Source: an uncultured Alphaproteobacteria bacterium (GTDB taxonomy: Bacteria; Pseudomonadota; Alphaproteobacteria; Rhizobiales; Xanthobacteraceae). From it: a stretch of DNA of 64,000 nucleotides. The number at the start of each line of letters is the position of its first letter. Within the stretch, counting starts at the first letter, position 1. Where the stretch lies: assembly GCA_963787675.1 (NCBI GenBank), contig CAWBDV010000019.1, positions 212,073 through 276,072 on the forward strand, written 5' to 3'. This document shows, one piece after another, positions 13,680-50,140 of this stretch. The notes under the pieces were generated by a model. It saw nothing but the letters and a program-made list of their open reading frames with translations, was not told the DNA's origin and did not search any database. A program made the translations under genes and the position numbers.

Positions 13680-13680
13680 C

Positions 13681-28103: not shown

Positions 28104-28260
28104 GATCAGCGGCGGCGGACGATTGGCACAGGTAGCCCCGTCCTGCCTTGGGTCCCGAAAATCGTCGATGGCAGGACAAGCTACGAAAGGAGCGGAGTAG
28201 CCAAATTTTAATCGTGCACGCCGGTGTCCCATTCGCCGGAAGATGCATTATGTTAGGGCA

Positions 28261-28894
28261 ATGGATGCTGTCACCAGTCACCCCCTTCCGGCGCGGCCGC
28301 TCGCGATACCGAACCTGCTGACGTACGCGCGGATCCTGGCTGTGCCGCTGGTGGTTGCCTGCATGTATTGGCAGTCGATTTTGTCGGGCGGCTTGTGGCT
28401 GCGCTGGGTCGCGCTCGCGATCTTCGTTGCCGCCGGCGTAACCGACATTCTCGACGGCTACCTTGCCCGAAGCCTCGGCCAGCAGTCGAGCTTCGGCCGC
28501 ATGCTCGATCCCATCGCCGACAAGCTCCTGGTGGCGTCGTGCCTTCTCATGCTTGCAGCCGATGAGACCATCCGGGGCTGGTCGCTGTGGGCCGCCATCG
28601 TGATCCTGTGCCGCGAGATCCTGGTGTCTGGTCTCCGCGAATACCTCGCCGAGCTGCGCGTCAGCGTTCCGGTGACCCGGCTTGCCAAATGGAAAACTAC
28701 GGTCCAGCTCGTTGCCATCGGATTCCTGCTCGCCGGCGATGCAGGTGACGAGGCGTTTCGGTCGTTCGTCGGCGGTGCGTCCGCCCCGGTGGTGAGTCTT
28801 GACGGGGCTGACGTTGCTGTGGATTTCAGCCATCGTGACGCTTTACACGGGCTACGACTACTTCCGTGCCGGCGTCCGCCACCTGATCGACTGA
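28261..28894 (+). pseudogene. pgsA: CDP-diacylglycerol--glycerol-3-phosphate 3-phosphatidyltransferase with an apparent 1-nt insertion near 28794..28805
   Basis: CDP-OH transferase motif DILDGYLARSLGQQSSFGRMLDPIADK. The conserved C-terminus GLTLLWISAIVTLYTGYDYFRAGVRHLID* is in the +1 frame and ends in a TGATG overlap with moaD. The start could also be 28243. Confidence 0.85.
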
Positions 28895-29151
28895 TGAGCG
28901 TAAAACTTCTGTATTTCGCCTGGGTGCGCGAGCGCATCGGCAAAGGCGAGGAGACCGTGGACCCGCCGGCCGGCGTCGTCACCATCGCCGATCTGGTGGC
29001 CTGGCTCGCCAGCCGCGGCGAAGAATATGCGTTTGCCTTCGAAAAGCCCAAGGTCATTCGCGCCGCGATCGACCGCGGTCACGTGAAACCCGAAGCGCCG
29101 ATCGCAGGCGCGCGCGAAATCGCGTTCTTCCCGCCGATGACCGGCGGATGA
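28894..29151 (+). CDS. moaD: Molybdopterin synthase sulfur-carrier subunit
   Basis: 85 aa, MSVKLLYFAWVRERIG..., C-terminal FFPPMTGG. Appears fused to pgsA in the ORF track only because of the pgsA frameshift. Confidence 0.88.
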   Translation: MSVKLLYFAWVRERIGKGEETVDPPAGVVTIADLVAWLASRGEEYAFAFEKPKVIRAAIDRGHVKPEAPIAGAREIAFFPPMTGG

Positions 29152-31849: not shown

Positions 31850-32866
31850 TCAGGTGCCCCACCCGCTTGCGAGGCAAGCCCGCAAGCCGCTTTCCAACTC
31901 CGCGCGATCGAGATTGCGGCCGATAAAGACGAGCCGGCTGTTGGGACGAGCAGCGCCCCAAGGATTGGCCGGCCGCAGTTCGAACAGGCGATGAACGCCC
32001 TGAAGCACCCACCGCCGCGGATCGTCCTTGGCGGCCAGAATGCCCTTGAGGCGAAAAATCTCATCGCCGCGACGCTCCAGCAAATCCTTCAAGTGGTCTT
32101 CAAGACGCGCCTTGTCGAAGGCCTCATCGAACGTGAACGAGACCGAATCGAGCGACGGATCGTGCTGATGATCATGATCGTCGAGGAAATGCTCATCGCT
32201 TGCCATCGTCCGCGACAGGTCGAATGCGCCGATGCCAAGAATTTTTTCAAGATCAACCTTTGCGTAACTCGAACGAATGATCGATGCCGTGGCGTTGAGA
32301 CCGCGCATGCGAGTCTCGAGCGACTTGATCTTGCTGTCGTCGACGAGATCGATCTTGTTGATGATGATGCGGTCCGCCGCCATGATCTGATCGACCGCCT
32401 GATTGTCGATGCCGTCGAGGTTCGGGTCGTCGAGATGCGTATCGATGTGCTTGGCATCGATGAGCGTCACGATCCCGTCGAGATTCACTTGGCGCGCGAT
32501 GTCGTCGTCGATGAAGAAGGTGGCGGCGACCGGATTTGGGTCGGCGAGGCCGCTCGTTTCCACCAGAATGTGATCGAATTTCTCGCGCCGCTCCATGAGC
32601 TGGCCAAGGATGCGGATGAGGTCGGTGCGCACGCTGCCCACGCAGCAGATGCAGCCATTCGTCATCTCGAAGATCTCTTCCTCGGAGGTCAGCACGAGAT
32701 CGGAGTCGATGTTGATCTCGCCGAATTCGTTTTCGATCACCGCGATGCGATGGCCGTGCCGTTCGGTGAGAATATAATTAAGAAGTGTCGTTTTCCCCGA
32801 TCCGAGAAATCCGGACAGGATTGTCACTGGCACCGGCCGCGACGATTTCTGTTCACTCACGCTCAT
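31850..32866 (-). CDS. COG0523 (CobW/ZigA-like) G3E metallochaperone GTPase
   Basis: ATG at 32866. P-loop GFLGSGKTTLLN, CxCC motif (NGCICCV), and a His-rich stretch DDHDHQHD. Confidence 0.88.
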   Translation of the reverse strand: MSVSEQKSSRPVPVTILSGFLGSGKTTLLNYILTERHGHRIAVIENEFGEINIDSDLVLTSEEEIFEMTNGCICCVGSVRTDLIRILGQLMERREKFDHILVETSGLADPNPVAATFFIDDDIARQVNLDGIVTLIDAKHIDTHLDDPNLDGIDNQAVDQIMAADRIIINKIDLVDDSKIKSLETRMRGLNATASIIRSSYAKVDLEKILGIGAFDLSRTMASDEHFLDDHDHQHDPSLDSVSFTFDEAFDKARLEDHLKDLLERRGDEIFRLKGILAAKDDPRRWVLQGVHRLFELRPANPWGAARPNSRLVFIGRNLDRAELESGLRACLASGWGT

Positions 32867-32914
32867 GATCGCTCCATACAAGTACTTCGTTTCTAATAAA
32901 TCCGGGTCTTAACT

Positions 32915-33029
32915 GTCATCGCCCGGCTTGACCGGGCGATCCAGTAACCACTGCAAGACGATGGCGTGCGGCATTCCATCAGGCGATAGTCCGGTGGTTA
33001 CTGGATGCTCCGCTTTCGCGGAGCGTGAC
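32915..33029. repeat. REP/MITE-like element, family B (inverted copy of 8681..8799)
   Basis: gtcatcgcccggcttgaccgggcgatccagtaaccac ... ggtggttactggatgctccgctttcgcggagcgtgac. Confidence 0.8.
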
Positions 33030-33068
33030 GGCAAAAGGTCCGAAGCTCGGGCTTCGATTCATGTTCGT

Positions 33069-35363
33069 TTACGCTGCCCTCACCTTTTGCCCCGCGCCTT
33101 CGCGTTTCTCCCGCAGTGCGTCCAGCACCTGTTCGGGCGTGATCGGATAGTGCCGAAAGCGGATGCTGATTGCGTCGTACACCGCATTCGCGATGGCCGG
33201 CCCGATCGCGATGATCGGGTCTTCGCCGACCCCCTTCGCGCCGAACGGTCCGCCCGCGGACGGCGCCGTCTCCAGGATGATGGTGTGGATCGGCGGCATG
33301 TCCATCGACAGCGGCATCTTGTAGTCGACGAAGCTCGGGTTGAGCGAGCGGCCGTCGTTCGGATCGATGACGTAGTCCTCGGTCAGCGTATGACCGATGC
33401 CTTGCTGGATGCCGCCTTCGATCTGGCCTGCCGCCGCGACCGGATGAATGACGCGACCGATCTCGTGCACCGGTACCACTTTCACCACCTCGATCTGGCC
33501 GGTCTGGGTATCAACTTTCACCCGCACGAAATGCGCCGCGAACGAATAGGATTTCGTCGGATAATAGGTCGCCGTTCCGACGAGATGAGCGGCCGGTATG
33601 CCGAGGCGCGGCGCAATGGCGTCGCGCACGCTGAGCTTCATGCCCGGCACGCCTTTCACCGAAATCATGCCGTCGGCGACGACGAGATCGTCGGCTGCGG
33701 CTTCAAGCTGGTCGGCGGCGCGGCTCAAGAGCTGCTTCTTCACGTCCGCTGTCGCCATTTGCGCCGCACGACCGCCCATGAACGTGGTGTGGCTTGCGAA
33801 TGCGCCGATATCCCATGGCACGACGTCGGTGTCGCCATGAACCACGGCGACATCCTCGAACTTCACGCCAAGCTCCTCCGCGACGATCTGGGCGAGCGCC
33901 GTGTGCGCGCCGGTTCCGAGCCCCGCCGTTCCGGTCAAAAGCGTGACGGTGCCGTCCTCGTTCATTTTGACGATGGCGTTGCCCTGCTCCTTGATGCCGG
34001 GATAGGCGCTGCTGCCGTGCATCTCGCAGCCCATGCCCCAACCGTAACGGATGGGCCCCTGCGCCTCGCGCGCGCTGTTGCGGAGCTCATCCCATTTCAC
34101 TTCCGTCCGCCCGCGCCGGATGCAGTCTTCGAGGCCGTGTCCGGTGAGCGGATGGCCCGACGGCGCGATGTCGCCCTCGCGGACGGCGTTGCGCAATTTC
34201 AGTTCCGCCGGATCGATGCCCAGCCGCTCCGCCGCCTCGTCCATCTGAATGTCGAGGGCATAATAGGTCTGCACCACGCCATAGCCGCGAAACGCGCCGG
34301 CGATCGGCGTGTTGGTGTAGACGCCGCGCCCCTCGAGATGGACGTTCTCGCAGCGATAAAGCGACGTCAGCGCCGCGGTGCCGACTGCGGTCACGCCGGG
34401 GCTGTGCGACCCGTAGGCGCCGCCGTTGAACGTGACGCGCGCCTGCCGCGCGGTGATCGTGCCGTCCTTCTTGAAGCCTTGCTTTAACCAGACGGAGCCG
34501 GGATGGCGCGAGCGCCCGCTGAGAAACGTCTCCTTGCGGCTTAGCTCCAGCCGCACCGGCCGGCGCGTCTCCTTGGCGAGGAGAGCGCACAGAAACTCGT
34601 TCTGAAACAGATCCTGCTTGGCACCGAAGCCACCGCCCATGTGGTCGACCAAAACACGGACATGGTGCAGCGGCAGCCCGAGGACCTCGGCGAGGATTCC
34701 GCGCACCATGAATGCGGTCTGGGTCGAAATCCACACCGTGAGCTTGCCGGTCGCATCCCACTGGCAAACGCAGACATTGGGTTCCATGTAGGCCGGCGTC
34801 GGACGGCCCATCTCGTACTCGCCTTCGATGATGAGGTCGGCGTCAGCGAAACCGCGGCCGATGTCACCGCGCGTGACGACGAACGGGTCGATCACAAGGT
34901 TGCCCGGGTGCGTCTCATGAACGAGCGGCGCCCCGGGGCGTAACGCCTCTTCCACTGTGAGAACGGCCGGCAATGCCTCGTACTCGACTTCGATGAGGTC
35001 GAGTGCCTCTTCCACGATCTCCTCGCTGACGGCAGCGACCGCGGCGACACCATCGCCCCAGTAGCTGACCTTGTTATCGAGGATGTACTGGTCCTTGGTC
35101 ACCGACGCGGAGCGCGGGTGGGGCGATCCGTAGTGAAGGACGCGCGGCACGTTGTCGTGCGTGAGCACCGCCTTCACGCCGGCAAGCGCCAGCGCCTTCG
35201 TCGCATCGATGCGCGTGATCCGCGCGTGAGCGACGGCGCTGCGCTTGATCTTGGCGTGCAGCATGCCGGGCAGCGCGATATCGCCCGCATACCGCGCCTG
35301 GCCGGTCACCTTGCCCAAGGTGTCGACGCGCTTGACGCTGTAACCGACGACCGCGAAGTTCAT
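33069..35363 (-). CDS. Xanthine dehydrogenase-family molybdopterin-binding large subunit (cytoplasmic; substrate unknown)
   Basis: 764 aa with VTGQARYAGDI hammerhead, GGGFGAK, and AGAFRGYG active-site loop. Confidence 0.92.
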   Translation of the reverse strand: MNFAVVGYSVKRVDTLGKVTGQARYAGDIALPGMLHAKIKRSAVAHARITRIDATKALALAGVKAVLTHDNVPRVLHYGSPHPRSASVTKDQYILDNKVSYWGDGVAAVAAVSEEIVEEALDLIEVEYEALPAVLTVEEALRPGAPLVHETHPGNLVIDPFVVTRGDIGRGFADADLIIEGEYEMGRPTPAYMEPNVCVCQWDATGKLTVWISTQTAFMVRGILAEVLGLPLHHVRVLVDHMGGGFGAKQDLFQNEFLCALLAKETRRPVRLELSRKETFLSGRSRHPGSVWLKQGFKKDGTITARQARVTFNGGAYGSHSPGVTAVGTAALTSLYRCENVHLEGRGVYTNTPIAGAFRGYGVVQTYYALDIQMDEAAERLGIDPAELKLRNAVREGDIAPSGHPLTGHGLEDCIRRGRTEVKWDELRNSAREAQGPIRYGWGMGCEMHGSSAYPGIKEQGNAIVKMNEDGTVTLLTGTAGLGTGAHTALAQIVAEELGVKFEDVAVVHGDTDVVPWDIGAFASHTTFMGGRAAQMATADVKKQLLSRAADQLEAAADDLVVADGMISVKGVPGMKLSVRDAIAPRLGIPAAHLVGTATYYPTKSYSFAAHFVRVKVDTQTGQIEVVKVVPVHEIGRVIHPVAAAGQIEGGIQQGIGHTLTEDYVIDPNDGRSLNPSFVDYKMPLSMDMPPIHTIILETAPSAGGPFGAKGVGEDPIIAIGPAIANAVYDAISIRFRHYPITPEQVLDALREKREGAGQKVRAA

Positions 35364-35872
35364 CGCACACTCTCGGTTGCTTCAGTGGGTTTCTTTGCCC
35401 CCGCCGACAGCTCGCGCGCCGTCGCGAGGATCGCCTCGATGATCTTGGTATAGCCGGTGCAACGGCAAATATTTCCGGCAAGACCGAACCGGACCTCCTC
35501 CTCGGTCGGGTTCGGGTTCTCGTCGAGCAAGGCCTTTGCCATCACGATGATTCCCGGCGTGCAGAAGCCGCACTGCGAGCCGCCGTATTTCATCATGTTT
35601 TCCTGCAGTGGATGGAGCCGATCAGGCGCCAATTGGATGCCTTCGATCGTCACCACCTCGCAGCCTTTCGCCTCGACGGCGAGCACCAGGCACGAATTGA
35701 CCGGCTTGCCGTTGAGGATGACGGTGCAGGCGCCGCAGTCACCGACATCGCATCCCTTTTTGGTGCCGGGCAGCGCCGCTTCGTTGCGCAAAGCATCGAG
35801 CAGGCTGCGGTAGGGCTTGACCGCAAGCTCCTGCAACTCGCCGTTGATGGTGATCGGCACCACCTGCTTCAT
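35360..35872 (-). CDS. Mo-hydroxylase [2Fe-2S] small subunit (no Tat signal)
   Basis: CDVGDCGACTV and CGFCTPG..CRCTGY motifs; 4-nt overlaps with both neighbours. Confidence 0.92.
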   Translation of the reverse strand: MKQVVPITINGELQELAVKPYRSLLDALRNEAALPGTKKGCDVGDCGACTVILNGKPVNSCLVLAVEAKGCEVVTIEGIQLAPDRLHPLQENMMKYGGSQCGFCTPGIIVMAKALLDENPNPTEEEVRFGLAGNICRCTGYTKIIEAILATARELSAGAKKPTEATESVR

Positions 35873-36732
35873 TGGATCTGCTCCCGCGCCGCGGTGATCG
35901 TGCGCGATGTCAGCACCGCGGTCATCTCCCGTCGGTACGCGGCGCTGCCGCGAACATTGCTGATCGGTCGCGTGTCCTCCGCCGCGGCGCGTGCCGCCTG
36001 CTCGATCAGACTTGGATCGAGGGGGTGTCCCTCCAACATCGATTCGGCGCGCTTTGCCCGGATCGGGGTCGGCGCGACCGCCCCGAGCACGATGCGAATG
36101 GCGCGGCAGACATCGCCATCGAGTGTTAGAGAGACAGCAACACCGACGGTCGCGAGTTCCATCGCCTTGCGGCGGCCATGCTTGATATAGACGCTGGCCG
36201 AGTGCGGTGCTGAGGCCGGCACTTCAACCCCGGTTACGATTTCATCACGCCGCAACAGCGTCTTGCCCGGACCGATGAAGAAATCCTCCAGCATGATTCG
36301 TCGTCCGCCGGTGGGCCCGTGAACGGTCGCGCAGGCGCCATCAGCGATGAGCGGCGGCAAGGTGTCCGCCGACGGCGAGGCGCGGCAGATATTCCCGACA
36401 ACGGTCGCGCGATTGCGGACCTGAATCGAGCCGAGTTCGCTCACGGCCTGGGCCAAGCCGCGATAGTGCTTGCGCACCGCCGGCGAAATCTCGATCTCGC
36501 GTGCCGTCACGAGCGCGCCGAACCGCAATCCGGACGTTGGATCGAAGCGCAACTGGTCCATGCCCGGTATTTTTTTGATGTTGATGACATGGTCGGGCGA
36601 GCGAATGTGCTCCTTGATCTCGACCAGCAGATCGGTGCCGCCCGCGAGCACGCTGGCGGCGCCGTCGTGCTGTCCCAGCAGCGCGACCGCCTCATCAAGG
36701 CTATGCGGTTCGAAATAGTCGAAGCGCTTCAT
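35869..36732 (-). CDS. Mo-hydroxylase FAD-binding medium subunit (CoxM/CutM-like)
   Basis: AGGTDLLVEIK, VRNRATVGGNI-like motif (VRNRATVVGNICRASP), and a C-terminal CO_deh_flav_C-like domain. Confidence 0.9.
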   Translation of the reverse strand: MKRFDYFEPHSLDEAVALLGQHDGAASVLAGGTDLLVEIKEHIRSPDHVINIKKIPGMDQLRFDPTSGLRFGALVTAREIEISPAVRKHYRGLAQAVSELGSIQVRNRATVVGNICRASPSADTLPPLIADGACATVHGPTGGRRIMLEDFFIGPGKTLLRRDEIVTGVEVPASAPHSASVYIKHGRRKAMELATVGVAVSLTLDGDVCRAIRIVLGAVAPTPIRAKRAESMLEGHPLDPSLIEQAARAAAEDTRPISNVRGSAAYRREMTAVLTSRTITAAREQIQ

Positions 36733-36758
36733 GTTTACTCGCTGCCGAAGGCCCGCAT

Positions 36759-38147
36759 CTATTCAGCGGGCACCGGCTGGGCCGCCACCTTTTCGCGCGG
36801 CGGCAAGCCATTGAACAGCAGGTTCAACAGCACCGCCGTCAGCGTCCCGATCAGGACGCCACTCTGGAAGAAGCGGCCGACGCCCGCCGGCAGCTTCGAG
36901 AAGAATTGGTCCGACACCACCGGGATCATCGCCAGCGCCACGCTTACGGCGACGATGTAGAGGTTGCGTCGGTTCGTGGAAAAGTCCGCTCGCGCGAAAA
37001 TCTTGACGCCGGTGGCCGTGACCATGCCGAACATCACGATCGCCGCACCGCCGATGACGTAGCTCGGAATGGAGGCCGTGAGAAAGGCGAGCTTCGGGAA
37101 GCAGCCGAGCGCGACCAGGATCCCGCCACCCGCGGCAACGGCCCATCGGCTCACCACGCCCGTGATCTGAACAAGGCCCACGTTTTGCGCGAACGTGGTG
37201 TAGGTGAAAGTGTTGAAGATGCCGCCAATGATATTGCCGACGCCGTCGGCCCGCAGGCCTCGCGCAAGATCCTGTTCGGTGACTTGGCGACCGCCCATAT
37301 CGGCAACCGCGAGAAATTGACCGGTCAATTCGATCATCATCACGATCATCACCGCGCAAAGCGCGGCAATCGACCATGGCTCGAAGACCGGAAAGCCGAA
37401 ACGGAACGGCAAAACCAGCGTCAGCCAATCGGCGGACGCAACACCCTGGAAATCGACGCGGCCCAGCGCGACGGCCAGAACGAATCCGATGCCGATACCG
37501 AGGAGGACGGCGAGGTTTCCAAGAAACCCCTTGAGATAGCGCGTCATCAACAGGATCGAGAGCAACACGATCGCGGCAATCGCGAGATTTTCCGGAAGGC
37601 CATAGTTGGGATTGGGGGTGAGACCGTTCGGACCGCGGATGAACGGCTGACCGCCGGCGGCCCAGTCGATGCCGACCCGCATCAACGACAGGCCGATGAT
37701 CAACATCACGGTGCCCGTGACGACCGGCGGAAAGAACCGGACCCAGCGCCCGAAGAACGGCGCCGCCAAGAACGCGAATACGCCGGAGCCGATGACGGCG
37801 CCGAATACGCCCGGCATGCCCAATTCGGGAGTGTTTCCCGTCGCGATGATGCTTGGGACCGCCGTGAACGCGACGCCCATCACCATTGGCAGCCGAATGC
37901 CGATGTTGAAGAAGCCGACGCACTGAATGATGGTGACGATCCCGCAGACCAGAAGGTCCGCGCTCACCAGCATTGCGATCTGTTCCTTCGGCAAATGCAC
38001 GGCGCCACCGATAATCAACGGCACCGCCGCCGCGCCCGCATACATCGCCAGCACATGCTGGAGGCCGAGCACGAAGAGCCGCGGAACCGGAAGAACCTCA
38101 TCGATCGGATCGATCTTCGATGGCATAGGATCAACTCTTGGTTCCAT
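36759..38147 (-). CDS. NCS2-family nucleobase:cation symporter (xanthine/uracil permease-like), copy 1
   Basis: ATG at 38147 (GGGAG upstream). LGLQHVLAMYAG and FAQNVGLVQITGV signatures; about 13 TM segments. Confidence 0.88.
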   Translation of the reverse strand: MEPRVDPMPSKIDPIDEVLPVPRLFVLGLQHVLAMYAGAAAVPLIIGGAVHLPKEQIAMLVSADLLVCGIVTIIQCVGFFNIGIRLPMVMGVAFTAVPSIIATGNTPELGMPGVFGAVIGSGVFAFLAAPFFGRWVRFFPPVVTGTVMLIIGLSLMRVGIDWAAGGQPFIRGPNGLTPNPNYGLPENLAIAAIVLLSILLMTRYLKGFLGNLAVLLGIGIGFVLAVALGRVDFQGVASADWLTLVLPFRFGFPVFEPWSIAALCAVMIVMMIELTGQFLAVADMGGRQVTEQDLARGLRADGVGNIIGGIFNTFTYTTFAQNVGLVQITGVVSRWAVAAGGGILVALGCFPKLAFLTASIPSYVIGGAAIVMFGMVTATGVKIFARADFSTNRRNLYIVAVSVALAMIPVVSDQFFSKLPAGVGRFFQSGVLIGTLTAVLLNLLFNGLPPREKVAAQPVPAE

Positions 38148-38303
38148 GATCGTACTCCCGGTCAGCGTCCTCATCCCTGCTTGCCGCCGCAGCGGCTTTG
38201 TTGATGTCAATGAGCGGGCGGCAAGCGTCGAAACGACGAATCCGTGATCGGTCCTGAGCAACCCCCGGCCGCTTGCTACCGCGGCCGAGGAAATTCGCGT
38301 GCG

Positions 38304-39221
38304 TCAGACCGCCTCGGCCGCGACCTTGCCAGTCAGCCGGCTCTTGGCCTCTTCGACCGTCTTCGGCGGCTTGGTCGGCTTGATCCCGAGAAGCTTCGCG
38401 ACGTTATTGCCCATGAAATCCTCGAGCAAATCTTCGTCGAGGTTCATGCCTTGGGGCGGCGGGCTGCACAGCACTTCGAGTTCACGCAGCCACATGCCGG
38501 GCTCGTTCGGCGGCGAGTCGGTGCCGAACACGATCTTGTTGCGCGGCAGTTGCTTGGCGAACTCCACGATGCGCGACTGGAGGCACCAGCCCGATTCGAC
38601 ATAGACGTTGGGGGTGTCCATCGCCATCCAGAACGCCTCGAAGCAGTAGACGCCACCGGTCTGAATGCCGAAGTGACCGATGATGAAATTGACGTTCGGG
38701 AACTCACGGATGATCGGGTAGAACTGAGTCGGGATGCTGTACGGCCCGTCGCCGGTGTGGATCAGCACCACGACGCCGAGTTCATCGCACTTGCGCATCG
38801 CCGGCCGCAGCCAGTCGAGCGCGCGGTCGGGCCGGTACGAGTGCATGTTGGCGTGCAGCTTCAGCATCTTGAAGCCGTATTCCTTGACGTGAAACTCGAG
38901 CTCCGCGGCGCCGTTTTCCGGTCCAAAGCGCGGGTTGTAGGTGAAGTTGCCGATGAAGCGGTCGGGATACTTCTGCACCAACTCGACGATGTAGGACATG
39001 TAATCGCGGATGCCCTCGCGTCCGGTGCGATTGCCTTCGCGCCACGCCGTGTTGCCCGGCGGCGGTTGAATGAGGCCCATATCGATGCGGCGCGGCTTGC
39101 CGTTGATGTAGTACGGGCCGTCCATCAGCTTAAGCATCCGTTCGCCGTTGAACGGAGTCCCATCGTGTCGCCACGCCTCGTCGACGACGTTCGTGGGATG
39201 AAGGTGGGTGTCGATAATCAT
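38304..39221 (-). CDS. Amidohydrolase_2 (ACMSD/LigW/IDCase-type metal-dependent hydrolase or decarboxylase) family protein
   Basis: ATG at 39221 (AGGGAG upstream). MIIDTHLHP metal-binding HxH; later HTGDG, GHFG and FGTDSP motifs. Confidence 0.82.
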   Translation of the reverse strand: MIIDTHLHPTNVVDEAWRHDGTPFNGERMLKLMDGPYYINGKPRRIDMGLIQPPPGNTAWREGNRTGREGIRDYMSYIVELVQKYPDRFIGNFTYNPRFGPENGAAELEFHVKEYGFKMLKLHANMHSYRPDRALDWLRPAMRKCDELGVVVLIHTGDGPYSIPTQFYPIIREFPNVNFIIGHFGIQTGGVYCFEAFWMAMDTPNVYVESGWCLQSRIVEFAKQLPRNKIVFGTDSPPNEPGMWLRELEVLCSPPPQGMNLDEDLLEDFMGNNVAKLLGIKPTKPPKTVEEAKSRLTGKVAAEAV

Positions 39222-39491
39222 GGTTTGCTCCCTGCAAACGACGCAAATGACCGCGACGGAATGCGATCGCAATCCGGCCCACGGCCACGCTTCCTGACGA
39301 TATCCTGGATCAACGCCACGGCAGGCTCCGGTCCAAATCGCGACGGCACACAAATGCCTGTCAGCAATCTCCGACTGAAACGTCCCGGCGCTACGGTGAC
39401 GGTTCAGCTGACCGCTTCTACCGACCGCCGACCTCTACCAAACTCATTCCTGTCGCGCAAGCGCGATACTGCCGCATATTCTCTGGGCCGA

Positions 39492-40841
39492 TCACCGCAG
39501 GTGATTGGAAATATAGTTTCGCGCCCATGCGACGGATTTCTCCGGCAAGCGTGTGCGCTCACCCTCGAACTTCGGTCCCTTGGTGGCGTCGATGCCGATC
39601 TTCGCCGACATGCCCTCGACCGAAGATGGGTCGAGCCGGTTGCAGAAGACTTTCGGAATCATGAACATATCAGTGTCGGCCTGGAACCGCGTCGCCAGCG
39701 CCCACAGCACTTCCTCCTCGTTGAAGACGTCGACGTCCTCGTCCACGGCGACGCCGAGCTTGACATAGGAGTCGAGGCCCATCAGCAGCATCAGCGCCTG
39801 GCGCGCCTGGCCCTCGGCTGTTTTCTTGAACGACATGTAGGCATGAAAGTGCGTGCCGGATTTCGGATAATTGATCGCCTTGAGCGTCGGCACCATTTCC
39901 TTGAGCCGGTGGAACACGTGCGCCTCGCGCGTGCTGCGACCGAGCAGCAGATGCTCCGCGGAATAGCCGGGGATGATGTCGAGGAAGATCGGTTTGCGCT
40001 TGTGCGTGATCGCCTTGACGACGAACACGTTGCGGGTCGACCGATAGGTCGAATAGCCGGTGTATTCCCCATACGGCCCTTCGTCCTCGTGCACGCCGCC
40101 AAGAATCTCGCCCTCGACGACGTATTCCGCATCGGCCGGCACTTCGACGTCGATCGTCTTGCATTTCACCATCTCGACCGGCGCGCCCATCAGGGCGCCG
40201 GCGATCGCAAGCTCGTCGACATCCATGGCGACCTTGGCCGCTGCCGCAATGTAGATCGCGGGATGGCAACCGATCACCACCGCAACTTCGAGATTCTGTC
40301 CGCGCGCCTCACACCGTTGCAGATAATCCCAGATGTGCCCGCGCGAGTGCAGGCTCGCACCGAATCGATTTGGCCCCTTGAGCTGCATCCGCTGGAAGCT
40401 GAGATTGCGCCCCCCTGTTTCCGGGTCTTTGCAGATCAGGATGCCGGAGCCGATGTAACGGCCGGCATCGGCTTCGAAATGCCGAGAAATCGGCAGCTTG
40501 CCGGCGTCAGCCTCGTTGCCGAGCGCGACCACGTCCTGCACCGGCGCTCGGTCCGTCATGACGGCGGGCTTCATGTTCGAAAGCGCGTCCGTCCACGCGG
40601 CATTGAACTCGCCCGGACCTCGGCCAACCATCCGTGCAATGCGATTGCGATCGGCAAACAGGTTCGTCACCACCGGCACGTCGAAACCGTCCGGTCGCTC
40701 GATGCAGACGACGGGAAAGCGCTTCTGCGCTTCAAGCTCCAGCACGAGCGCTGTCGGCCCGAAATCGAGATTGATCGGCTCCGTGATCGTCACTTTCTCG
40801 CTCGCCGGAAGGCTATCGAGAAATTCCTTGAGATTGGGCAT
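39492..40841 (-). CDS. UbiD-family (prFMN-dependent) decarboxylase, copy 1
   Basis: 449 aa. RNLSFQRMQ, CHPAIYIAAA, and EGPYGEYTGYS acid/base loop. Confidence 0.9.
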   Translation of the reverse strand: MPNLKEFLDSLPASEKVTITEPINLDFGPTALVLELEAQKRFPVVCIERPDGFDVPVVTNLFADRNRIARMVGRGPGEFNAAWTDALSNMKPAVMTDRAPVQDVVALGNEADAGKLPISRHFEADAGRYIGSGILICKDPETGGRNLSFQRMQLKGPNRFGASLHSRGHIWDYLQRCEARGQNLEVAVVIGCHPAIYIAAAAKVAMDVDELAIAGALMGAPVEMVKCKTIDVEVPADAEYVVEGEILGGVHEDEGPYGEYTGYSTYRSTRNVFVVKAITHKRKPIFLDIIPGYSAEHLLLGRSTREAHVFHRLKEMVPTLKAINYPKSGTHFHAYMSFKKTAEGQARQALMLLMGLDSYVKLGVAVDEDVDVFNEEEVLWALATRFQADTDMFMIPKVFCNRLDPSSVEGMSAKIGIDATKGPKFEGERTRLPEKSVAWARNYISNHLR

Positions 40842-40897
40842 CAGTAGGTCCCTGCTGGTGCGAGTGGTCTTCCGGGAGCGCTCTAATTCTCGGCAGC

Positions 40898-41055
40898 GTC
40901 ATTCCGGGGCGCCGCAGCGAAGCGGAGGCGAGCCCGGAATCCATGAACGCGACTGCGGAGAATGGATTCCGGGTTGCCTCGCTGCGCTCGGCCCCCGGAA
41001 TGACGCTGCGGATTTTGCGGAATGACGCCGCGGAAATTCCGGAACGACGCTGCGG
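40898..41055. repeat. REP/MITE-like element, family C (nested palindrome GTCATTCCGGGG..CCCCGGAATGAC plus partial tandem arms)
   Basis: gtcattccgggg...gcccggaatccat / atggattccgggt...ccccggaatgac, followed by two ggaa(t/c)gacgc(c/t)gcgg half-copies. Confidence 0.75.
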
Positions 41056-41064
41056 AAAATTCGC

Positions 41065-41673
41065 TCAATTGTGCTCGCTCGGTCCCATGATGACGACGCC
41101 CTCGGTCGCCTCGACGTGGCGGACGAAGACGTACTTGTCCTCGCGGCCGTCGCTGTGCTTGCGCTTCACGTCGCGGCGGACCGTGCGGTCGACCTTTGCG
41201 ACGATCACGAAGGGTGATTGCGCCGCTAGTCCTTCATCGCACCGCTGCGCGAATTCATCGAGATCGCGCACCGTGTGAGCGTTTTCGATGCCCGCGCCGC
41301 ACGCAATCGCGGCGATGTCGACACGGCCGGACGCCGTGTGGGTCGGCGGCCCGCCAATCGACTGATAGCATTCGTTGTCCCACACGATGACGAGCAGATT
41401 GGTTGGGCGCTCGTTCGCCAGCGTCGCCAGGATACCGAGGTTGAACATCATGCCGCCGTCGGTATCGAGCGAGACGATACGCCGATGCGGCAGTCCGACC
41501 GCCAGTCCCAGCGCCTGCGGGGTGACGCAACCCAGCTGCTGCTGGAACAGGCTCGCTTCGCGCATGTGGGGCGCGGCATCGTACCATTCATCGACGCTGC
41601 CGCCGAGCGACAGGATGACGAGTTCGTTCTTGAGCTTTGCCGCAAGCACCTTCATGCAATCATAACGCGTCAT
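41065..41673 (-). CDS. TPP-dependent 2-oxoacid decarboxylase, beta (PP-binding) subunit (sulfopyruvate/phosphonopyruvate decarboxylase-like)
   Basis: ATG at 41673 (ATGA overlap with the alpha subunit). TPP-binding motif LDTDGGMMFNLG...WDNECY. Confidence 0.8.
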   Translation of the reverse strand: MTRYDCMKVLAAKLKNELVILSLGGSVDEWYDAAPHMREASLFQQQLGCVTPQALGLAVGLPHRRIVSLDTDGGMMFNLGILATLANERPTNLLVIVWDNECYQSIGGPPTHTASGRVDIAAIACGAGIENAHTVRDLDEFAQRCDEGLAAQSPFVIVAKVDRTVRRDVKRKHSDGREDKYVFVRHVEATEGVVIMGPSEHN

Positions 41674-42170
41674 CGCACCATACTCCCGGCAAGCACGACG
41701 GCGGAATGATAATAGGCGGTGTGCGACCAGGTGAATGCGTCGCGGATCGCCTGTTCGATCCCCTCCTCCCGGTCGACGATGCGATACGGGATGCGCATGG
41801 CCTGCAGCAACGGCTCCATCGTCATGCCGTGCGGAATCGCCCACCAGTTGTTCTCGCCGAGGTCGCCGCGATAGCTCATCAGCATGACCACCGGGATGCC
41901 GGCGCCCATGCCCATGCGCGCCAGCGGCTCGATCGACGCTCGCAGCCCGGAGTTTTCCATGACCAATACGGCGCGTTTGCCTGACAGCCACACGCCGCCG
42001 CAAATCCCGGCACCCTCGCCCTCGTTGGTGACGCGGATGGTGCGAATGTCATTGTCCCTGTCGAGCGCCGGATAGAGCTCCTTGAGAAGCGAATCCGGTA
42101 GATAGCAGGCGACACTGACGCCCGAGGCTTTCAGTGCCTTAATGACCTTTTCAACGGCGCTAGCTTTCAT
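41670..42170 (-). CDS. TPP-dependent 2-oxoacid decarboxylase, alpha (PYR-domain) subunit
   Basis: TPP_enzyme_N-like: VTNEGEGAGICGG, VLVMENSGL. The start could alternatively be 42194. Confidence 0.78.
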   Translation of the reverse strand: MKASAVEKVIKALKASGVSVACYLPDSLLKELYPALDRDNDIRTIRVTNEGEGAGICGGVWLSGKRAVLVMENSGLRASIEPLARMGMGAGIPVVMLMSYRGDLGENNWWAIPHGMTMEPLLQAMRIPYRIVDREEGIEQAIRDAFTWSHTAYYHSAVVLAGSMVR

Positions 42171-42343
42171 CGCTTTCGAGGACCTCCTCTCCACCGGATG
42201 AATGATACACGATAGTGCGGCGATCGCGTCTGCGTCGATTTCGCCGGCTCATGAAGCTTGAAACGAAGGGGCTTCTCGCCGTAGGACGCAATCAACGCCT
42301 TGCGCAAAACAAATTGCAGGGCGACATGCCGGGGAGAGAAATC

Positions 42344-43717
42344 ATGAGCCTGATCGAGGAATCCGTCCATCCGGTCAATGCGGTACCGCCGCCCGGCCGC
42401 CTCACCGTCCTGGGGCTCCAGCACCTCTTCGTGATGTACGCCGGCGCGATTGCAGTGCCGTTCGTGATCGGCAGCTCGCTCAGCATGTCGCCGGCTGACA
42501 TCGCGCAGATGGTGTCGGCCAATACGATCTTTGCGGGACTTGGGACGATTTTGACCACGGTGGGTCTGTGGAAGTTCGGCGCGCGGCTGCCGATCGTGCT
42601 GGGGCCATCCGCCAACGTCATTGGACCTCTGATCCTCATCGGCAAGACCTATGGCCTGCCGGCCGTGTGGAGCACGTGCATCTTGGCTGGCGCCGCGATG
42701 ATGATCTGCGCCCCGATCATCGGACGATTGCGGCGCTTCTTTCCCCCGGTTGTGATGGGCACGATGCTCGCGCTCGTCGGCATCATGCTGGTGCCGATCG
42801 GAGTACGGCTCATCACCAATTTCAAGCCCGACGATCCGGTCAGCGCCAAGAACTTGATCATGGCGGGAGGCACAATCCTGCTGGTCGCCTTGTTCATGAA
42901 GTTTTTGCCGGCAATGCTGCGGCAGATGTCGGTGCTGTTCGGACTTATCCTGGCGACGGTGATCGCACTCGTGCTTGGCGACGCGGACTTCAGCCGCGTG
43001 TTCCAGGGCGCCCTGTTCGGATTCACGCTGCCGGCGCACTTCGGGGAGTTCAACTTCGACATCGGCGCTGCGATCGCCGTCATTGTCCTGATGGCGGTGC
43101 TCATGTTTGAGGTGCTGCCGCAGCTCGTCGCGGTTGGTGAAATGGTCGGGCGCGAGGCAACAAGCGAAGACGTTCAGGGCGGCGTTCTGGCGGATGGGCT
43201 GACGAGCCTCGTCGGCGGCGTATTTGGTGCGTTCCCCTTGGTCACCTTCTCGCAGAACATTGGAGTCCTCGGCCTCACCACGACGCGCAGCCGCTTCGTT
43301 GCGACCGCGGCCGGCGTGTTCCTGGTCATCCTCGGTTTATTCCCCCCGCTGGGGCGCCTGGTGGCAGCAATTCCCGGACCGATCATCGGCGGCATCGCCC
43401 TCGTGATGTTCACGGCGATCGGTGTCATCGGCATCAAGATCCTCAATCGCGTGGATTTCGCCGAGCCGCAGAACCTGTTCATCGTCGCCACGTCGCTCGG
43501 AATAGGCTTCATTCCGATGGTGGCGCCGAAATTCTACGATGCCTGGCCGAAGAACCTGCAAACCATCTTCAACAGCCCGGTGGGCGCGGGGTTGATCGCC
43601 GCCATTCTGCTCAATCTCCTGTTCAATCACTTGCCGGCGATGCGAACATCGGCGAGAGAAAGCGACCATGCGGTGCCTTCTCCCGACGCCGCGAAGGCGC
43701 GGCAACATCAGGCATAG
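42344..43717 (+). CDS. NCS2-family nucleobase:cation symporter, copy 2
   Basis: ATG at 42344 (GGGGAGAG upstream). LGLQHLFVMYAG and FSQNIGVLGLT signatures. Confidence 0.88.
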   Translation: MSLIEESVHPVNAVPPPGRLTVLGLQHLFVMYAGAIAVPFVIGSSLSMSPADIAQMVSANTIFAGLGTILTTVGLWKFGARLPIVLGPSANVIGPLILIGKTYGLPAVWSTCILAGAAMMICAPIIGRLRRFFPPVVMGTMLALVGIMLVPIGVRLITNFKPDDPVSAKNLIMAGGTILLVALFMKFLPAMLRQMSVLFGLILATVIALVLGDADFSRVFQGALFGFTLPAHFGEFNFDIGAAIAVIVLMAVLMFEVLPQLVAVGEMVGREATSEDVQGGVLADGLTSLVGGVFGAFPLVTFSQNIGVLGLTTTRSRFVATAAGVFLVILGLFPPLGRLVAAIPGPIIGGIALVMFTAIGVIGIKILNRVDFAEPQNLFIVATSLGIGFIPMVAPKFYDAWPKNLQTIFNSPVGAGLIAAILLNLLFNHLPAMRTSARESDHAVPSPDAAKARQHQA

Positions 43718-43722
43718 GACGT

Positions 43723-45096
43723 GTGAAGGTGACGGCCCCGATCCACGATCTTCGTGATTTCATCGACGTGCTGCGAAAAGCCGGCGCACTTGCCGAGATC
43801 GTGACTCCGGTCGATCCGGTGCACGAACTCGGCGCGGTCTTGCGCGCCTGCGAACAGAGCGGCAAGGCCGCGCTCTTTCACAACGTGAAGGGCTCGGAGA
43901 TACCGGTCATGGGCAGTGCGCTCGGCTCCCATGAGCGGATTGCGCTCGCGGTCGGCTGCGAACGGCAAAAGCTCGGCGATGTGCTCGATGCTGCAACCCG
44001 CGCGCCGGTGGCGTTTCGTGCGATTGAGGGCGCGGCGCCGTGCCAGGAGGTCGTCACCGATAACGTCAATCTCGCGACCCTGCCGGTGCCGGTTCATGCG
44101 CCAAAGGACGGCGGCGCCTTCATCAACGCGGGCGTCGTGATCTGCCGCGATCCGGTCAGCGGCCGGCATAATCTTTCGTATGTGCGCATGCAGGTGAAGG
44201 GTCGCGATCGCGTCGGCATCAATCTCAACACCTGGCGCCATATGCGCGAGTTTTTCGAGACTGCGGAAGCACAGGGCGAAAATCTGCCATTCTGCGTTGC
44301 GATCGGCGTCGATCCCGTTTTGATGATCGCGGCCGCGTTCCGCTATGGCGGCGACGAATACGAAATCGCCGGCGCGCTGCGCGGCGGGCCGATCCCGGTG
44401 GTGCGCGCCCGCACCTGCGACATCATGGTGCCTGCGACGGCGGAGATCGTGCTCGAAGGCGAGGTTCTGGCCGGCGAACGCGAAGAGGAAGGGCCGATGG
44501 CCGAGTACACCGGCCATTATTCCGGCGTTCATCAGCAGCCGGTCGGGCGCATCACCGCGATCACCCATCGCCGCGATCCGATCTTCCAGACGACCGCCGG
44601 CGCGTCGTTCGAGCATCTTCTGTTGGGCGCGGCGGCGACGCGCGAGCCGCACCTTCGCCGCCTGACCATGAGCACGTCGCCGCGGGTGCGCGACGCCTAT
44701 CTGCCACCTTATGCCTCGGGCTTTCTCGCGCTGATTTCGATGGAAGAGCCGCGACCTGGCGAAGTGCGGGCGGTCGGCATTGCCGCGTTGATGGCGCACG
44801 TCAACATCAACACGGTGGTCGTGGTCGACACCGACGTTGATATCTTCGATCCGACCGACGTGTTCTGGGCGCTGTCGACGCGGGTGCGATGGGATCGCGA
44901 CCAGGTGGTCATCCCGGGAACGCTGGGCAACGAGCTTCACCCGTCTGCCGATGAAAACGGCGTCATCAGCAAGACCATCATCGACGCGACGCTCGCACCG
45001 GAACTCCGCGCCTCCCACAGCAAGATCGTTTATCCAAAGGTCGATCTGGCGGCGCTCCTGGCGCGCCAACCGCGGACGCCGCCCAAGCGGAGTTGA
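43723..45096 (+). CDS. UbiD-family (prFMN-dependent) decarboxylase, copy 2
   Basis: GTG start 6 bp after the permease stop. RHNLSYVRMQ, AIGVDPVLMIAAA, EGPMAEYTGHYSG. Confidence 0.9.
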   Translation: MKVTAPIHDLRDFIDVLRKAGALAEIVTPVDPVHELGAVLRACEQSGKAALFHNVKGSEIPVMGSALGSHERIALAVGCERQKLGDVLDAATRAPVAFRAIEGAAPCQEVVTDNVNLATLPVPVHAPKDGGAFINAGVVICRDPVSGRHNLSYVRMQVKGRDRVGINLNTWRHMREFFETAEAQGENLPFCVAIGVDPVLMIAAAFRYGGDEYEIAGALRGGPIPVVRARTCDIMVPATAEIVLEGEVLAGEREEEGPMAEYTGHYSGVHQQPVGRITAITHRRDPIFQTTAGASFEHLLLGAAATREPHLRRLTMSTSPRVRDAYLPPYASGFLALISMEEPRPGEVRAVGIAALMAHVNINTVVVVDTDVDIFDPTDVFWALSTRVRWDRDQVVIPGTLGNELHPSADENGVISKTIIDATLAPELRASHSKIVYPKVDLAALLARQPRTPPKRS

Positions 45097-45182
45097 ATGT
45101 TGCCGTCGCCGCGAGCGTCCGACCGCATGACGCTTGAGATTGATCCGCAGAGGCGCGTCGCCGCGCCGTAGGGGAGGAACAC

Positions 45183-46082
45183 ATGTCCGAACATCTGGGC
45201 TTCATCGGCGTCGGACGAATGGGCGGGCCGATGGCGGGCCGCCTGATCGATGCCGGTCACACGCTCACCGTCTATGACACCAGCGCGTCGGCGACTGCGG
45301 CACTCGCGGCGCGCGGTGCGCGGGTCGCTGGCTCATCGCGTGAGGTTGCGGACGCGGTCGAGACCGTGATCGTAAGCCTGCCCACGCCCGATATCGTTCG
45401 CGCAGTCGCGCTTGGCGAGAATGGCGTTGCGGCCGGCAGGCGGGTGAAGACATTCATCGATCTATCGACCACAGGGCCGCGCGTGATCGCCGCGGTCGCG
45501 GCGGCGCTCAAGGACAAGGGGATCGCTACCGTCGATTGCCCGGTGAGCGGAGGTGTCGGTGGCGCGCGCAAAGGCACGCTCGCCGTCATGGCGGCTTGTG
45601 AACGGCCCCTGTTCGAACGTTTCGAGCCGATCCTGAAGGTGTTCGGGAACGTCTTCTACATCGGCGAGCGGCCCGGCATGGGGCAGACCATGAAGCTCGC
45701 CAACAATCTTCTGTCGGCGACCGCGATGGCGATCTCCTCGGAAGCGATCGTCATGGGCGTCAAGGCCGGGCTCGACCCCAAGATCATGATCGACGTGATC
45801 AACTCCGGCAGCGGGCGCAACACCGCGACCCAGGAAAAGTTTCCGCGCGCGGTGCTGCCGCGCACCTTCGACTACGGCTTCGCCACCGGTCTCATGTACA
45901 AGGACGTGAAGCTCTGCCTCGAAGAGGCCGAAGCCCTCAACGTGCCGATGTGGCTCGGCAGCGCGGTACGCCAGCTCTGGCAGGTCGCGCACGCCGAGCT
46001 AGGGCCGGCAAGCGACTTCACCCAGATCGTGCAGTGCATCGAGAAGTGGGCCGGCGTCGAAGTGAAGAGCGACAAGGTGTGA
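45183..46082 (+). CDS. NAD(P)-dependent beta-hydroxyacid dehydrogenase (3-hydroxyisobutyrate / tartronate-semialdehyde reductase family)
   Basis: LGFIGVGRMGGPMA, DCPVSGG, GQTMKLANN. Confidence 0.88.
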   Translation: MSEHLGFIGVGRMGGPMAGRLIDAGHTLTVYDTSASATAALAARGARVAGSSREVADAVETVIVSLPTPDIVRAVALGENGVAAGRRVKTFIDLSTTGPRVIAAVAAALKDKGIATVDCPVSGGVGGARKGTLAVMAACERPLFERFEPILKVFGNVFYIGERPGMGQTMKLANNLLSATAMAISSEAIVMGVKAGLDPKIMIDVINSGSGRNTATQEKFPRAVLPRTFDYGFATGLMYKDVKLCLEEAEALNVPMWLGSAVRQLWQVAHAELGPASDFTQIVQCIEKWAGVEVKSDKV

Positions 46083-46721: not shown

Positions 46722-46891
46722 CGCGCTTCCCAGCTTCGCGGATACCCCGTGTCACGGCGTGACAGGCGAATGCGACCTCAATGCGACTGCTGACGATGAC
46801 GTGATGCGCAATCCGTCGCAGTCACCAAACTTTTTCGAATAGCTGAAGACGATTCGGAGAAGATCTTGAGATCGTTTATGTCAAATGGGAG

Positions 46892-48859: not shown

Positions 48860-50140
<1,281 letters not shown>

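Follow-up and report, generated by a model that had tools for sequence, protein, structure and literature searches.

A probable variant of the lumazine-to-xanthine locus in a Xanthobacteraceae bacterium, with a candidate stand-alone isomerase, a xanthine riboswitch-like leader and accessory genes

Results

Gene content of the locus

The DNA analysed, referred to here as the window, was a 64 kb stretch of contig CAWBDV010000019.1 from an uncultured bacterium of the Xanthobacteraceae, and the locus under study occupied positions 31850-46082. This locus had originally been predicted to encode the import, hydroxylation and serial decarboxylation of a poly-carboxylated N-heterocycle; the analysis below points instead to a route from the pteridine lumazine to xanthine. 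Genes were called as open reading frames (ORFs) with a filter on the GC content of third codon positions (GC3), and the domains of the locus proteins were assigned by Pfam and NCBIfam scans.

The reverse strand carried most of the genes. A COG0523/CobW-type GTPase (31850-32866; Pfam cobW and CobW_C) was followed by the large, molybdenum cofactor (Moco)-binding subunit (33069-35363; Ald_Xan_dh_C and MoCoBD_1/2), the [2Fe-2S] subunit (35360-35872; Fer2 and Fer2_2) and the FAD subunit (35869-36732; FAD_binding_5 and CO_deh_flav_C) of a molybdenum hydroxylase, with 4 nt overlaps between successive genes. Next came an NCS2 permease (permease 1; 36759-38147, start codon approximate; Xan_ur_permease), an Amidohydro_2 protein (38304-39221; Amidohydro_2), a riboswitch-like RNA (39352-39432; Rfam RF03054) and a decarboxylase of the type dependent on prenylated flavin mononucleotide (prFMN), termed UbiD1 (39492-40841; UbiD_N, UbiD and UbiD_C). 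Beyond a spacer with nested inverted repeats lay the beta (PP-domain) subunit (TPP-beta; 41065-41673; TPP_enzyme_C) and alpha (PYR-domain) subunit (TPP-alpha; 41670-42170; TPP_enzyme_N) of a split thiamine diphosphate (ThDP) enzyme, the two genes overlapping by the 4 nt ATGA. The forward strand carried a second NCS2 permease (permease 2; 42345-43717; Xan_ur_permease), a second prFMN decarboxylase (UbiD2; 43723-45096; UbiD domains) and a beta-hydroxyacid dehydrogenase of the HIBADH family (45183-46082; NAD_binding_2 and NAD_binding_11). The motif LGLQH..MYAG was present in both permeases. The NCBIfam equivalog level was reached by none of the molybdenum enzyme, the TPP subunits and the dehydrogenase.

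The gene families, overlaps and permease motif listed in the original prediction were all recovered by the Pfam, NCBIfam and ORF analyses. Also borne out was its statement that a ring-cleavage dioxygenase, CoA ligase, UbiX and transcription factor are lacking: none was found in the 64 kb window by tblastn and ORF scans. The window gave no tblastn match to the UbiX of the Sinorhizobium meliloti cluster (E 1e-10), nor to three Amidohydro_1 deaminases and one cytidine deaminase (CDA)-fold deaminase from related loci used as pterin deaminase queries.

Correspondence to the lumazine degradation cluster

Lumazine/pterin degradation cluster I has been described in Cupriavidus sp. LA-1 (Doi, Maeda & Takaya 2025, Commun Biol 8:1292; PMC12391406). 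There, LuDH (LA1_0145-0147) converts lumazine to 7-hydroxylumazine and on to 6,7-dihydroxylumazine, the isomerase DHLI, an alpha2beta2 Amidohydro_2 enzyme, turns the latter into xanthine-8-carboxylate, and the UbiD-family decarboxylase XCDC (LA1_0150), with UbiX, yields xanthine (PMC12391406). Active DHLI requires the GTPase LA1_0143, shown to act as a chaperone, and the cluster also holds two NCS2 transporters and a pterin deaminase; LuDH forms a separate xanthine oxidoreductase (XOR) group (PMC12391406).

Judged by sequence, eight of the 13 locus genes match this cluster, among them those for the three LuDH subunits, one NCS2 importer, the Amidohydro_2 protein, the COG0523 GTPase and UbiD1. 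A locus of Cupriavidus campinensis, which has the published gene order, was used as the comparison for the window proteins: identities were 76, 68 and 59% for the Moco, Fe-S and FAD subunits of LuDH, 80% for DHLI beta, 60% for the GTPase and 62% for permease 1. The corresponding values for S. meliloti were 75, 70 and 60%, 83%, 62% and 73%. The same module was found at similar identities on S. meliloti pSymB and in Paracoccus kondratievae and Caballeronia, taxa that are named in the published study (PMC12391406). The LuDH Moco subunit scored below the NCBIfam XdhA cut-off (649 < 780), consistent with the separate XOR group, and permease 1, the predicted importer of lumazine or hydroxylumazines, scored above the cut-off of the pbuX subfamily (522 > 414).

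Homologues of the Amidohydro_2 protein with 70-98% identity were present in more than 577 species genomes across phyla. Co-occurrence was counted by tblastn with the window proteins over 84 loci from other genomes (denoted below, with other contigs compared, by L numbers), each holding an Amidohydro_2 homologue. COG0523 was found in 77 of these loci, UbiD in 83, UbiX in 65, an NCS2 permease in about 60 and the Fe-S subunit of the molybdenum enzyme in 69. The grouping is co-conserved across the 84 loci and is not a chance juxtaposition of genes. The conserved module comprised two Amidohydro_2 paralogues, UbiD, UbiX, the COG0523 GTPase, an NCS2 permease and the molybdenum hydroxylase, the last with three subunits in Rhizobiales, Rhodoplanes and Cupriavidus and two in most Burkholderiaceae and Pseudomonas. 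In a sister metagenome-assembled genome (MAG; L006), the module was interleaved with canonical xdhABC and an OHCU-decarboxylase/HIUase gene of xanthine/urate catabolism, which fits xanthine as the product.

On three soil metagenome contigs (L115, L116 and L137), a LuDH-like molybdenum enzyme (58-64%) was followed by two distant Amidohydro_2 genes (32% to DHLI) and a UbiD1-type gene (69%). A sister route acting on another pteridine-like compound may be encoded there.

A candidate stand-alone isomerase subtype

In the beta subunit of LA-1 DHLI (LA1_0151), zinc is bound by His6, His8 and Asp235 (PMC12391406). The Amidohydro_2 protein of the window begins with MIIDTHLHP, containing His6 and His8, and its Asp235 was invariant; these are the residues named for LA1_0151. 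Beta subunits from clusters with both subunits were 80-88% identical to it. The corresponding sequence in the alpha paralogues is MIID(I/T)SCYP, which lacks the two His, in agreement with the published description (PMC12391406). By these sequence features the gene encodes the catalytic beta subunit of DHLI, an isomerase and not a decarboxylase, so that the count of four decarboxylases in the original prediction does not hold. The COG0523 protein, which that prediction had placed as an edge gene, is the predicted dedicated zinc chaperone of the isomerase and counterpart of LA1_0143, given its presence in 77 of the 84 loci.

Loci without an alpha gene numbered 12 of 85. They comprised the window, two Xanthobacteraceae-like MAGs (L005 and L006), a Burkholderiales MAG (L007), L008 and several Acidimicrobiia; the published study noted alpha-less clusters only in Actinomycetota (PMC12391406). 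Five residues, F99, D146, V191, C193 and L214, occurred together in all 12 alpha-less loci and in none of the 73 beta subunits with an alpha partner, in which the same positions were occupied by W, A, N, S and Y/F. Because the alpha-less loci recur and share five perfectly discriminating residues, the alpha-less beta looks like a distinct, stand-alone functional subtype rather than a product of decay.

A xanthine riboswitch-like element in the isomerase leader

The 270 nt gap between UbiD1 and the isomerase gene contained a full-length match to RF03054 at 39357-39428 on the reverse strand (28 bits, E 3e-4 on the intergenic stretch), placing a putative aptamer in the leader of the isomerase-permease-LuDH operon. 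The locus, called regulator-less in the original prediction, thus has a riboswitch-like RNA at 39352-39432 (-). Copies at the same position scored 29.6 bits in L005 and 27 bits in L006; the positional homologue on S. meliloti pSymB scored 43.4 bits, above the Rfam gathering score of 36, and that of Rhodoplanes 35.6. The loop sequence GTAGAAGCGGTCA occurred once in the 64 kb (0.03 expected), and a search with the conserved-loop pattern also found the element in L007 and L074.

A covariance model built from seven copies recovered further elements, placed a short distance upstream of DHLI genes, in four Rhodoplanes species, Cupriavidus campinensis, S. meliloti and Mesorhizobium-like loci. For 17 copies taken together, 91.7% of cells were paired, compared with 24-45% in slid controls; both P1 and P2 were supported, with compensatory changes in 11 pairs, and the observed covariation score was reached in 0 of 500 shuffles. 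Positions of the element were 9804-9873 in L001, 9709-9790 in L092 and 8716-8801 in L029, and it was also seen in L065, L069, L080, L078 and L084.

Xanthine and urate are the ligands of the RF03054 class, which serves as an OFF switch for the translation of xanthine-generating genes (Yu & Breaker 2020, PMC7373994). Shut-off by xanthine is the logic expected of a pathway that ends in xanthine. In several lineages, including Sinorhizobium and Cupriavidus, a predicted xanthine riboswitch appears to control the isomerase operon. As far as PMC7373994 was read, its associated genes include metallo-dependent amidohydrolases (hutI-type) but neither Amidohydro_2, DHLI nor lumazine genes; no riboswitch is mentioned in the lumazine-pathway paper (PMC12391406). 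Within that scope, the link between riboswitch and DHLI appears in neither source.

The UbiD1 decarboxylase

In both UbiD proteins, the UbiD_N, Rift-related and C-terminal domains were full length. E-x4-E is the catalytic motif of Fdc1/UbiD enzymes, and it was read as EGPYGE in UbiD1 and EGPMAE in UbiD2. The best solved-structure match of both was HmfF (6h6v), with 314 bits for UbiD1 and 280 bits for UbiD2. At the positions which we take to contact the distal carboxylate in HmfF, H296 and R304 were kept and R331 was replaced by H in UbiD1 and G in UbiD2; these residues were not relied on.

A neighbour-joining tree of 83 UbiD sequences was computed with 100 bootstraps. Neither protein grouped with HmfF, the support for such a grouping being 0/100 for UbiD1 and 15/100 for UbiD2. 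The UbiD1 clade and the XCDC clade were each monophyletic and were sisters in 100/100 bootstraps, with HmfF and UbiD2 outside. Among isomerase loci, a UbiD1-type gene replaced canonical XCDC in seven against 76, and the two never co-occurred. In four Rhodoplanes species, the UbiD1-type gene was the only UbiD beside DHLI-alpha/beta, LuDH and the GTPase. With its position as sister clade of XCDC, the mutual exclusion and the Rhodoplanes loci taken together, UbiD1 is predicted with moderate confidence to decarboxylate xanthine-8-carboxylate.

Accessory genes

The remaining genes, for the split ThDP enzyme, the permease 2-UbiD2 pair and the dehydrogenase, fit no described pathway. TPP-alpha scored 111 against the NCBIfam cut-off of 148 for sulfopyruvate decarboxylase alpha, and TPP-beta 93.5 against 221.5 for sulfopyruvate decarboxylase beta and 96 against 312.5 for Ppyr-DeCO2ase. 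The closest solved relative was an unnamed split TPP enzyme (9u8q/9u8r). More than 1500 homologues of TPP-beta were found, many about 80% identical, and seven neighbourhoods of close homologues contained neither sulfonate (ComABC, Xsc) nor phosphonate (phosphoenolpyruvate (PEP) mutase) genes. An assignment as sulfopyruvate/phosphonopyruvate decarboxylase was rejected, as all equivalog cut-offs were missed and the neighbourhoods were of purine/pteridine type instead.

Three kinds of neighbourhood were seen. In Rhizobium tumorigenes, Methylobacterium organophilum and Mesorhizobium (L085, L086 and L088), TPP-alpha/beta had a Rieske/glutathione S-transferase (GST) pair on one side and, on the other, a GMC oxidoreductase, an Amidohydro_1 gene and a VanA_C oxygenase, with Bmp-type ATP-binding cassette (ABC) importers nearby and nucleobase deaminases, a molybdenum enzyme and an aldehyde dehydrogenase in some copies. 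The conserved cluster has the appearance of an uncharacterised route for purine-like catabolism in which the same split ThDP enzyme takes part. In Azospirillum and in L100 and L101, the two genes were flanked by a CDA-fold deaminase gene and by xdhAB and stood behind an NMT1-type ABC importer. No xanthine riboswitches were found in the TPP-alpha/beta loci of Methylobacterium, Azospirillum and Mesorhizobium. In L089, TPP-alpha/beta preceded a UbiD1 orthologue (84%) and diverged from a permease 2-UbiD2 pair (80 and 84%), beside xdh/xdhC; neither DHLI nor LuDH was found within 10 kb. As both TPP-alpha/beta-UbiD1 and permease 2-UbiD2 recur in L089, they form a recurring unit, here fused to the lumazine module.

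Permease 2 was only 37% identical to the lumazine-cluster permease, compared with 80% to the UbiD2-adjacent permease of L089. The permease 2-UbiD2 pair, which recurs there, stands alone in L177. The UbiD2 clade was monophyletic (100/100 bootstraps) and not sister to XCDC. A UbiD2-type gene directly preceded the riboswitch and isomerase in L007 and L093. The latter contig, within 1-7505 and on one strand, reads UbiD1-type gene, xanthine riboswitch, NMT1-type ABC importer, UbiD2-type gene, second riboswitch and DHLI beta, and is the most compact evidence tying both UbiD clades to the isomerase. The dehydrogenase was considered as a conserved partner of UbiD2 and rejected as such: the HIBADH-like neighbour in Rhodoplanes elegans was 31% identical, and L089 and L177 lacked the gene. 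Its membership of the system is uncertain. Literature searches for a part of this split ThDP family in purine catabolism, for PDB 9u8q-9u8s and for the other accessory units found nothing.

Surroundings of the locus

The locus was flanked on one side by uvrC, pgsA/moaD, moaE, an HpcH aldolase gene and an acyltransferase gene, and on the other by a GST gene, a GT87 gene and an aspartate aminotransferase gene, all housekeeping or unrelated. The spacer between TPP-beta and UbiD1 held nested inverted repeats resembling repetitive extragenic palindromic (REP) elements (40885-41061, from a repeat search), with arms of 17-23 nt and 87-95% complementarity; the unit CCGGAATGACGCTGCGGA occurred three times, and a counterpart lay at 8177-8300 in L005. 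Rfam miRNA and snoRNA matches in this spacer were discarded as artefacts of the REP-like palindromes. Scans for sigma-70 promoters and terminators gave counts similar to those in shuffled sequence (5 versus 3.0±2.0 and 18 versus 12.5±4.0, respectively) and were not used.

Upstream, pgsA (CDP-alcohol phosphatidyltransferase) and moaD (ThiS-like) formed one ORF of 302 aa (28243-29151, +), either a fusion or a missed stop/start. The GT87 glycosyltransferase gene (46881-48272, -) was covered by two overlapping ORFs in different frames, the longer with an implausible Arg-rich C-terminus, and is probably frameshifted. A third UbiD-family gene (62471-64000) runs past the window end; the Pfam UbiD profile changes frame after about 63340, reflecting a pseudogene or an assembly indel. 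Taken together, the UbiD and GT87 frameshifts suggest indel errors in the metagenome assembly.

Region 50000-61500 had a lower GC content (54-60% versus about 63%) and contained genes for a phage-type integrase (56407-57042), an AAA_25 protein (59267-61207) and a PLD-like protein (52649-53611). The region probably represents an integrated mobile element. Three dehydrogenases dependent on pyrroloquinoline quinone (PQQ) and a cytochrome b561 were encoded within 294-4128 and 9244-16283, where a second three-subunit molybdenum enzyme was also found (Fe-S 13681-14346, with an N-terminal extension; Moco 11274-13679; FAD 10263-11261). Together they resemble a set of genes for alcohol/aldehyde oxidation, with no relation to the locus.

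Discussion

Proposed pathway

The locus is probably a variant of the lumazine/pterin-to-xanthine pathway joined to accessory genes. NCS2 permease 1 would import lumazine or hydroxylumazines, and the cytoplasmic FAD/Fe-S/Moco LuDH would hydroxylate C7 and then C6 to give 6,7-dihydroxylumazine. The zinc-dependent DHLI beta, metallated by the COG0523 GTPase, would then open the N8-C7 amide and reclose the ring to xanthine-8-carboxylate, a contraction of the pyrazine to an imidazole; for this, the single beta-type isomerase would have to function without the non-catalytic alpha subunit. A prFMN-dependent UbiD, presumably UbiD1 as xanthine-8-carboxylate decarboxylase, would take off the carboxyl group, releasing xanthine for ordinary purine catabolism, with prFMN supplied by a UbiX encoded elsewhere in the genome. 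Through the xanthine-class RNA in the isomerase-permease-LuDH leader, the end product xanthine could shut off translation.

Several observations weigh against this assignment. The core assignments rest on orthology and gene context. No DHLI alpha subunit was found in the 64 kb, the sole Amidohydro_2 homologue being of beta type, and in LA-1 the beta subunit alone is inactive and alpha is required (PMC12391406). UbiX and the pterin deaminase are likewise missing from the window. With the XCDC orthologues of Cupriavidus and S. meliloti, UbiD1 shared only 44 and 40% identity, respectively. Its substrate could differ, given the neighbours of its relatives: in soil metagenomes, most UbiD1-type genes were followed by an ABC importer gene with an NMT1-type substrate-binding protein and an Amidohydro_1 deaminase gene, sometimes with UbiX, and were not beside DHLI. 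The window copy of the riboswitch is below the gathering score (28 < 36), and the aptamer lies 135 nt from the isomerase start codon. Among the accessory genes, the dehydrogenase fell below all NCBIfam equivalog cut-offs and was syntenic with UbiD2 only in the near-identical L005, and the weakly held proposal that these genes would remove groups from substituted or carboxylated compounds of pteridine/purine-like type, so that these enter the xanthine route, derives from gene neighbourhood.

Alternative explanations

One could instead read the region as two or three independent units lying side by side. The lumazine module (DHLI, permease 1, LuDH and GTPase) would then be separate, TPP-alpha/beta with UbiD1 and permease 2 with UbiD2 would serve another purine-like substrate, and the decarboxylation of xanthine-8-carboxylate would fall to UbiD2 or to some enzyme with its gene elsewhere. 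L089, where TPP-alpha/beta, UbiD1, permease 2 and UbiD2 are grouped with an ABC importer, a CDA-fold deaminase, a LysR regulator and xdh and apart from DHLI and LuDH, speaks for such an arrangement, as do the placement of TPP-alpha/beta directly before UbiD1 in L006, L089 and L094, the prevalence of ABC importers and Amidohydro_1 over DHLI next to UbiD1-type genes, and the riboswitch and REP-like element that part UbiD1 from the genes on either side. However, the four Rhodoplanes loci have the UbiD1-type gene as their only UbiD beside DHLI/LuDH and lack the TPP genes, and UbiD1 is sister to XCDC and never co-occurs with it. A UbiD2-type gene occurs together with canonical XCDC in L007 and so is not simply its replacement, and L093 arrays UbiD1, UbiD2 and DHLI with xanthine riboswitches. 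On balance, independent units are an unlikely but credible description of the locus.

That the cluster is a decaying remnant, a lumazine cluster that has lost alpha, UbiX, deaminase and regulator and no longer works, is suggested by the absence of these four Cupriavidus-cluster components and by the two other window genes that look frameshifted. Yet none of the 13 genes is disrupted, their domain matches are full length, and L005 and L006 keep the layout, with protein identities of 92-99 and 74-95%, respectively. With alpha-less loci recurring under a shared residue signature and Actinomycetota clusters likewise without alpha, decay is very improbable. Still less credence can be given to the serial decarboxylation of a poly-carboxylated pyridine, pyrimidine or pyrrole, or of PQQ, by a molybdenum hydroxylase and four decarboxylases. 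The fold families as first stated, HmfF, a 2,5-furandicarboxylic acid (FDCA) decarboxylase, as best solved match of both UbiDs and the PQQ dehydrogenases of the window accord with it, but identities of 60-80% tie the molybdenum enzyme, Amidohydro_2 protein, GTPase and permease to orthologues with demonstrated lumazine-pathway functions, the Amidohydro_2 orthologue is an isomerase, no gene of pic, nic, qui or hmf type lies nearby, and the PQQ genes are 17-30 kb off among unrelated genes. The pic, nic, qui, hmf and purine pathways were rejected on the same high-identity orthologues.

The lumazine-to-xanthine route published in 2025 therefore supersedes a novel serial-decarboxylation pathway. From the original prediction, NCS2 import, a cytoplasmic molybdenum enzyme and a prFMN decarboxylase acting on an N-heterocycle stand, whereas the poly-carboxylated substrate and serial decarboxylation do not: pteridines such as lumazine and hydroxypterins carry no carboxyl group, and a single carboxylate arises by ring contraction within the pathway. 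PQQ, which it named as a purely speculative substrate, finds no support, the PQQ dehydrogenases at 294-4128 and 14517-16283 being unrelated neighbours. Its view that no known pathway fits was correct for pic, nic, hmf and purine degradation; eight of the 13 genes, however, already belong to a characterised pathway (PMC12391406), leaving the split TPP enzyme, UbiD2 with permease 2 and the dehydrogenase outside it.

A possible front end

For these accessory genes, a role as a front end that strips side chains or carboxyl groups off substituted pteridines and feeds the lumazine route is conceivable, though improbable. Candidate substrates would be compounds such as those with 6-side chains of biopterin, neopterin or sepiapterin type, 6-formyl- or 6-carboxy-pterin from folate breakdown, or erythropterin-type compounds with 2-oxo-acid side chains. 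A dehydrogenase would make an acyloin or 2-oxo-acid side chain, which the split ThDP enzyme would cleave or decarboxylate to a ring aldehyde; a molybdenum enzyme would oxidise this to a ring carboxylate, and UbiD2 would take off the carboxylate to give lumazine. If true, pteridine/purine catabolism would gain its first ThDP-dependent step, and a function would be provided for more than 1500 proteins now mislabelled 'sulfopyruvate decarboxylase'. Confidence in a specific role for any accessory gene is low.

Significance

The core pathway explains how soil bacteria recycle pteridine pigments and the remnants of folate/pterin cofactors into purine metabolism. What appears to be new here is the stand-alone isomerase subtype in Proteobacteria, the sister-clade decarboxylase, riboswitch control across lineages and the ThDP/UbiD2 accessory set. 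A stand-alone subtype bears on the role of the non-catalytic alpha subunit and would be new for Proteobacteria. Riboswitch control, if true, would mean product-feedback regulation of the pathway and would add lumazine degradation to the processes under this riboswitch class. The split ThDP family and UbiD2 clade are tied to purine/pteridine catabolism by their neighbourhoods; their present automatic names, 'sulfopyruvate decarboxylase' and '2,5-furandicarboxylate decarboxylase 1', are misleading.

Comparison with known systems

The locus shares with LA-1 cluster I a three-subunit LuDH-type enzyme, a DHLI beta subunit, an adjacent COG0523 GTPase, an NCS2 transporter and a UbiD-family decarboxylase. 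It differs in lacking DHLI alpha, UbiX, the pterin deaminase and a protein regulator, in drawing UbiD1 from the sister clade and not the XCDC clade, and in its additional split ThDP enzyme, second permease with second UbiD, and dehydrogenase.

Like the NMT1 (xanthine) riboswitch, the predicted RNA has P1, a conserved internal loop (GUAGAAGCGGUCA ... GGAGAUUGC) and P2, and lies in the 5' leader of xanthine-generating genes. Its P2 hairpin is longer, which accounts for the sub-threshold score of 28 bits, and the aptamer is 135 nt from the start codon, not next to the ribosome-binding site.

With the sulfopyruvate (ComDE) and phosphonopyruvate decarboxylases, its nearest named families, the split ThDP enzyme has in common separate alpha (PYR) and beta (PP) subunits and no middle domain. 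Unlike them, it is below every equivalog cut-off, and the constant neighbours of its family are xanthine dehydrogenase, nucleobase deaminases, purine-type ABC importers, GMC oxidoreductase and HpxDE-like oxygenases.

HmfF/HmfG (PDB 6h6v/6h6x) are the best solved match of the two UbiD proteins, and in each case the known or predicted target is a carboxylate that neighbours a heteroatom of the ring. UbiD1 and UbiD2 are nonetheless not grouped with HmfF, the hmfG, hmfH and hmfABCDE context is lacking, with no hmf genes among the window proteins in the Pfam and NCBIfam scans, and LA-1 XCDC is inactive on furoate and FDCA (PMC12391406).

Finally, the Amidohydro_2 fold is shared with the decarboxylases ACMSD, LigW, PicC and IDCase. 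The sole PDB sequence match of the window protein was LigW, and this was weak (E 2e-5 over 110 residues); its closest characterised relative is not a decarboxylase but the isomerase DHLI, with an orthologue at 80% identity.

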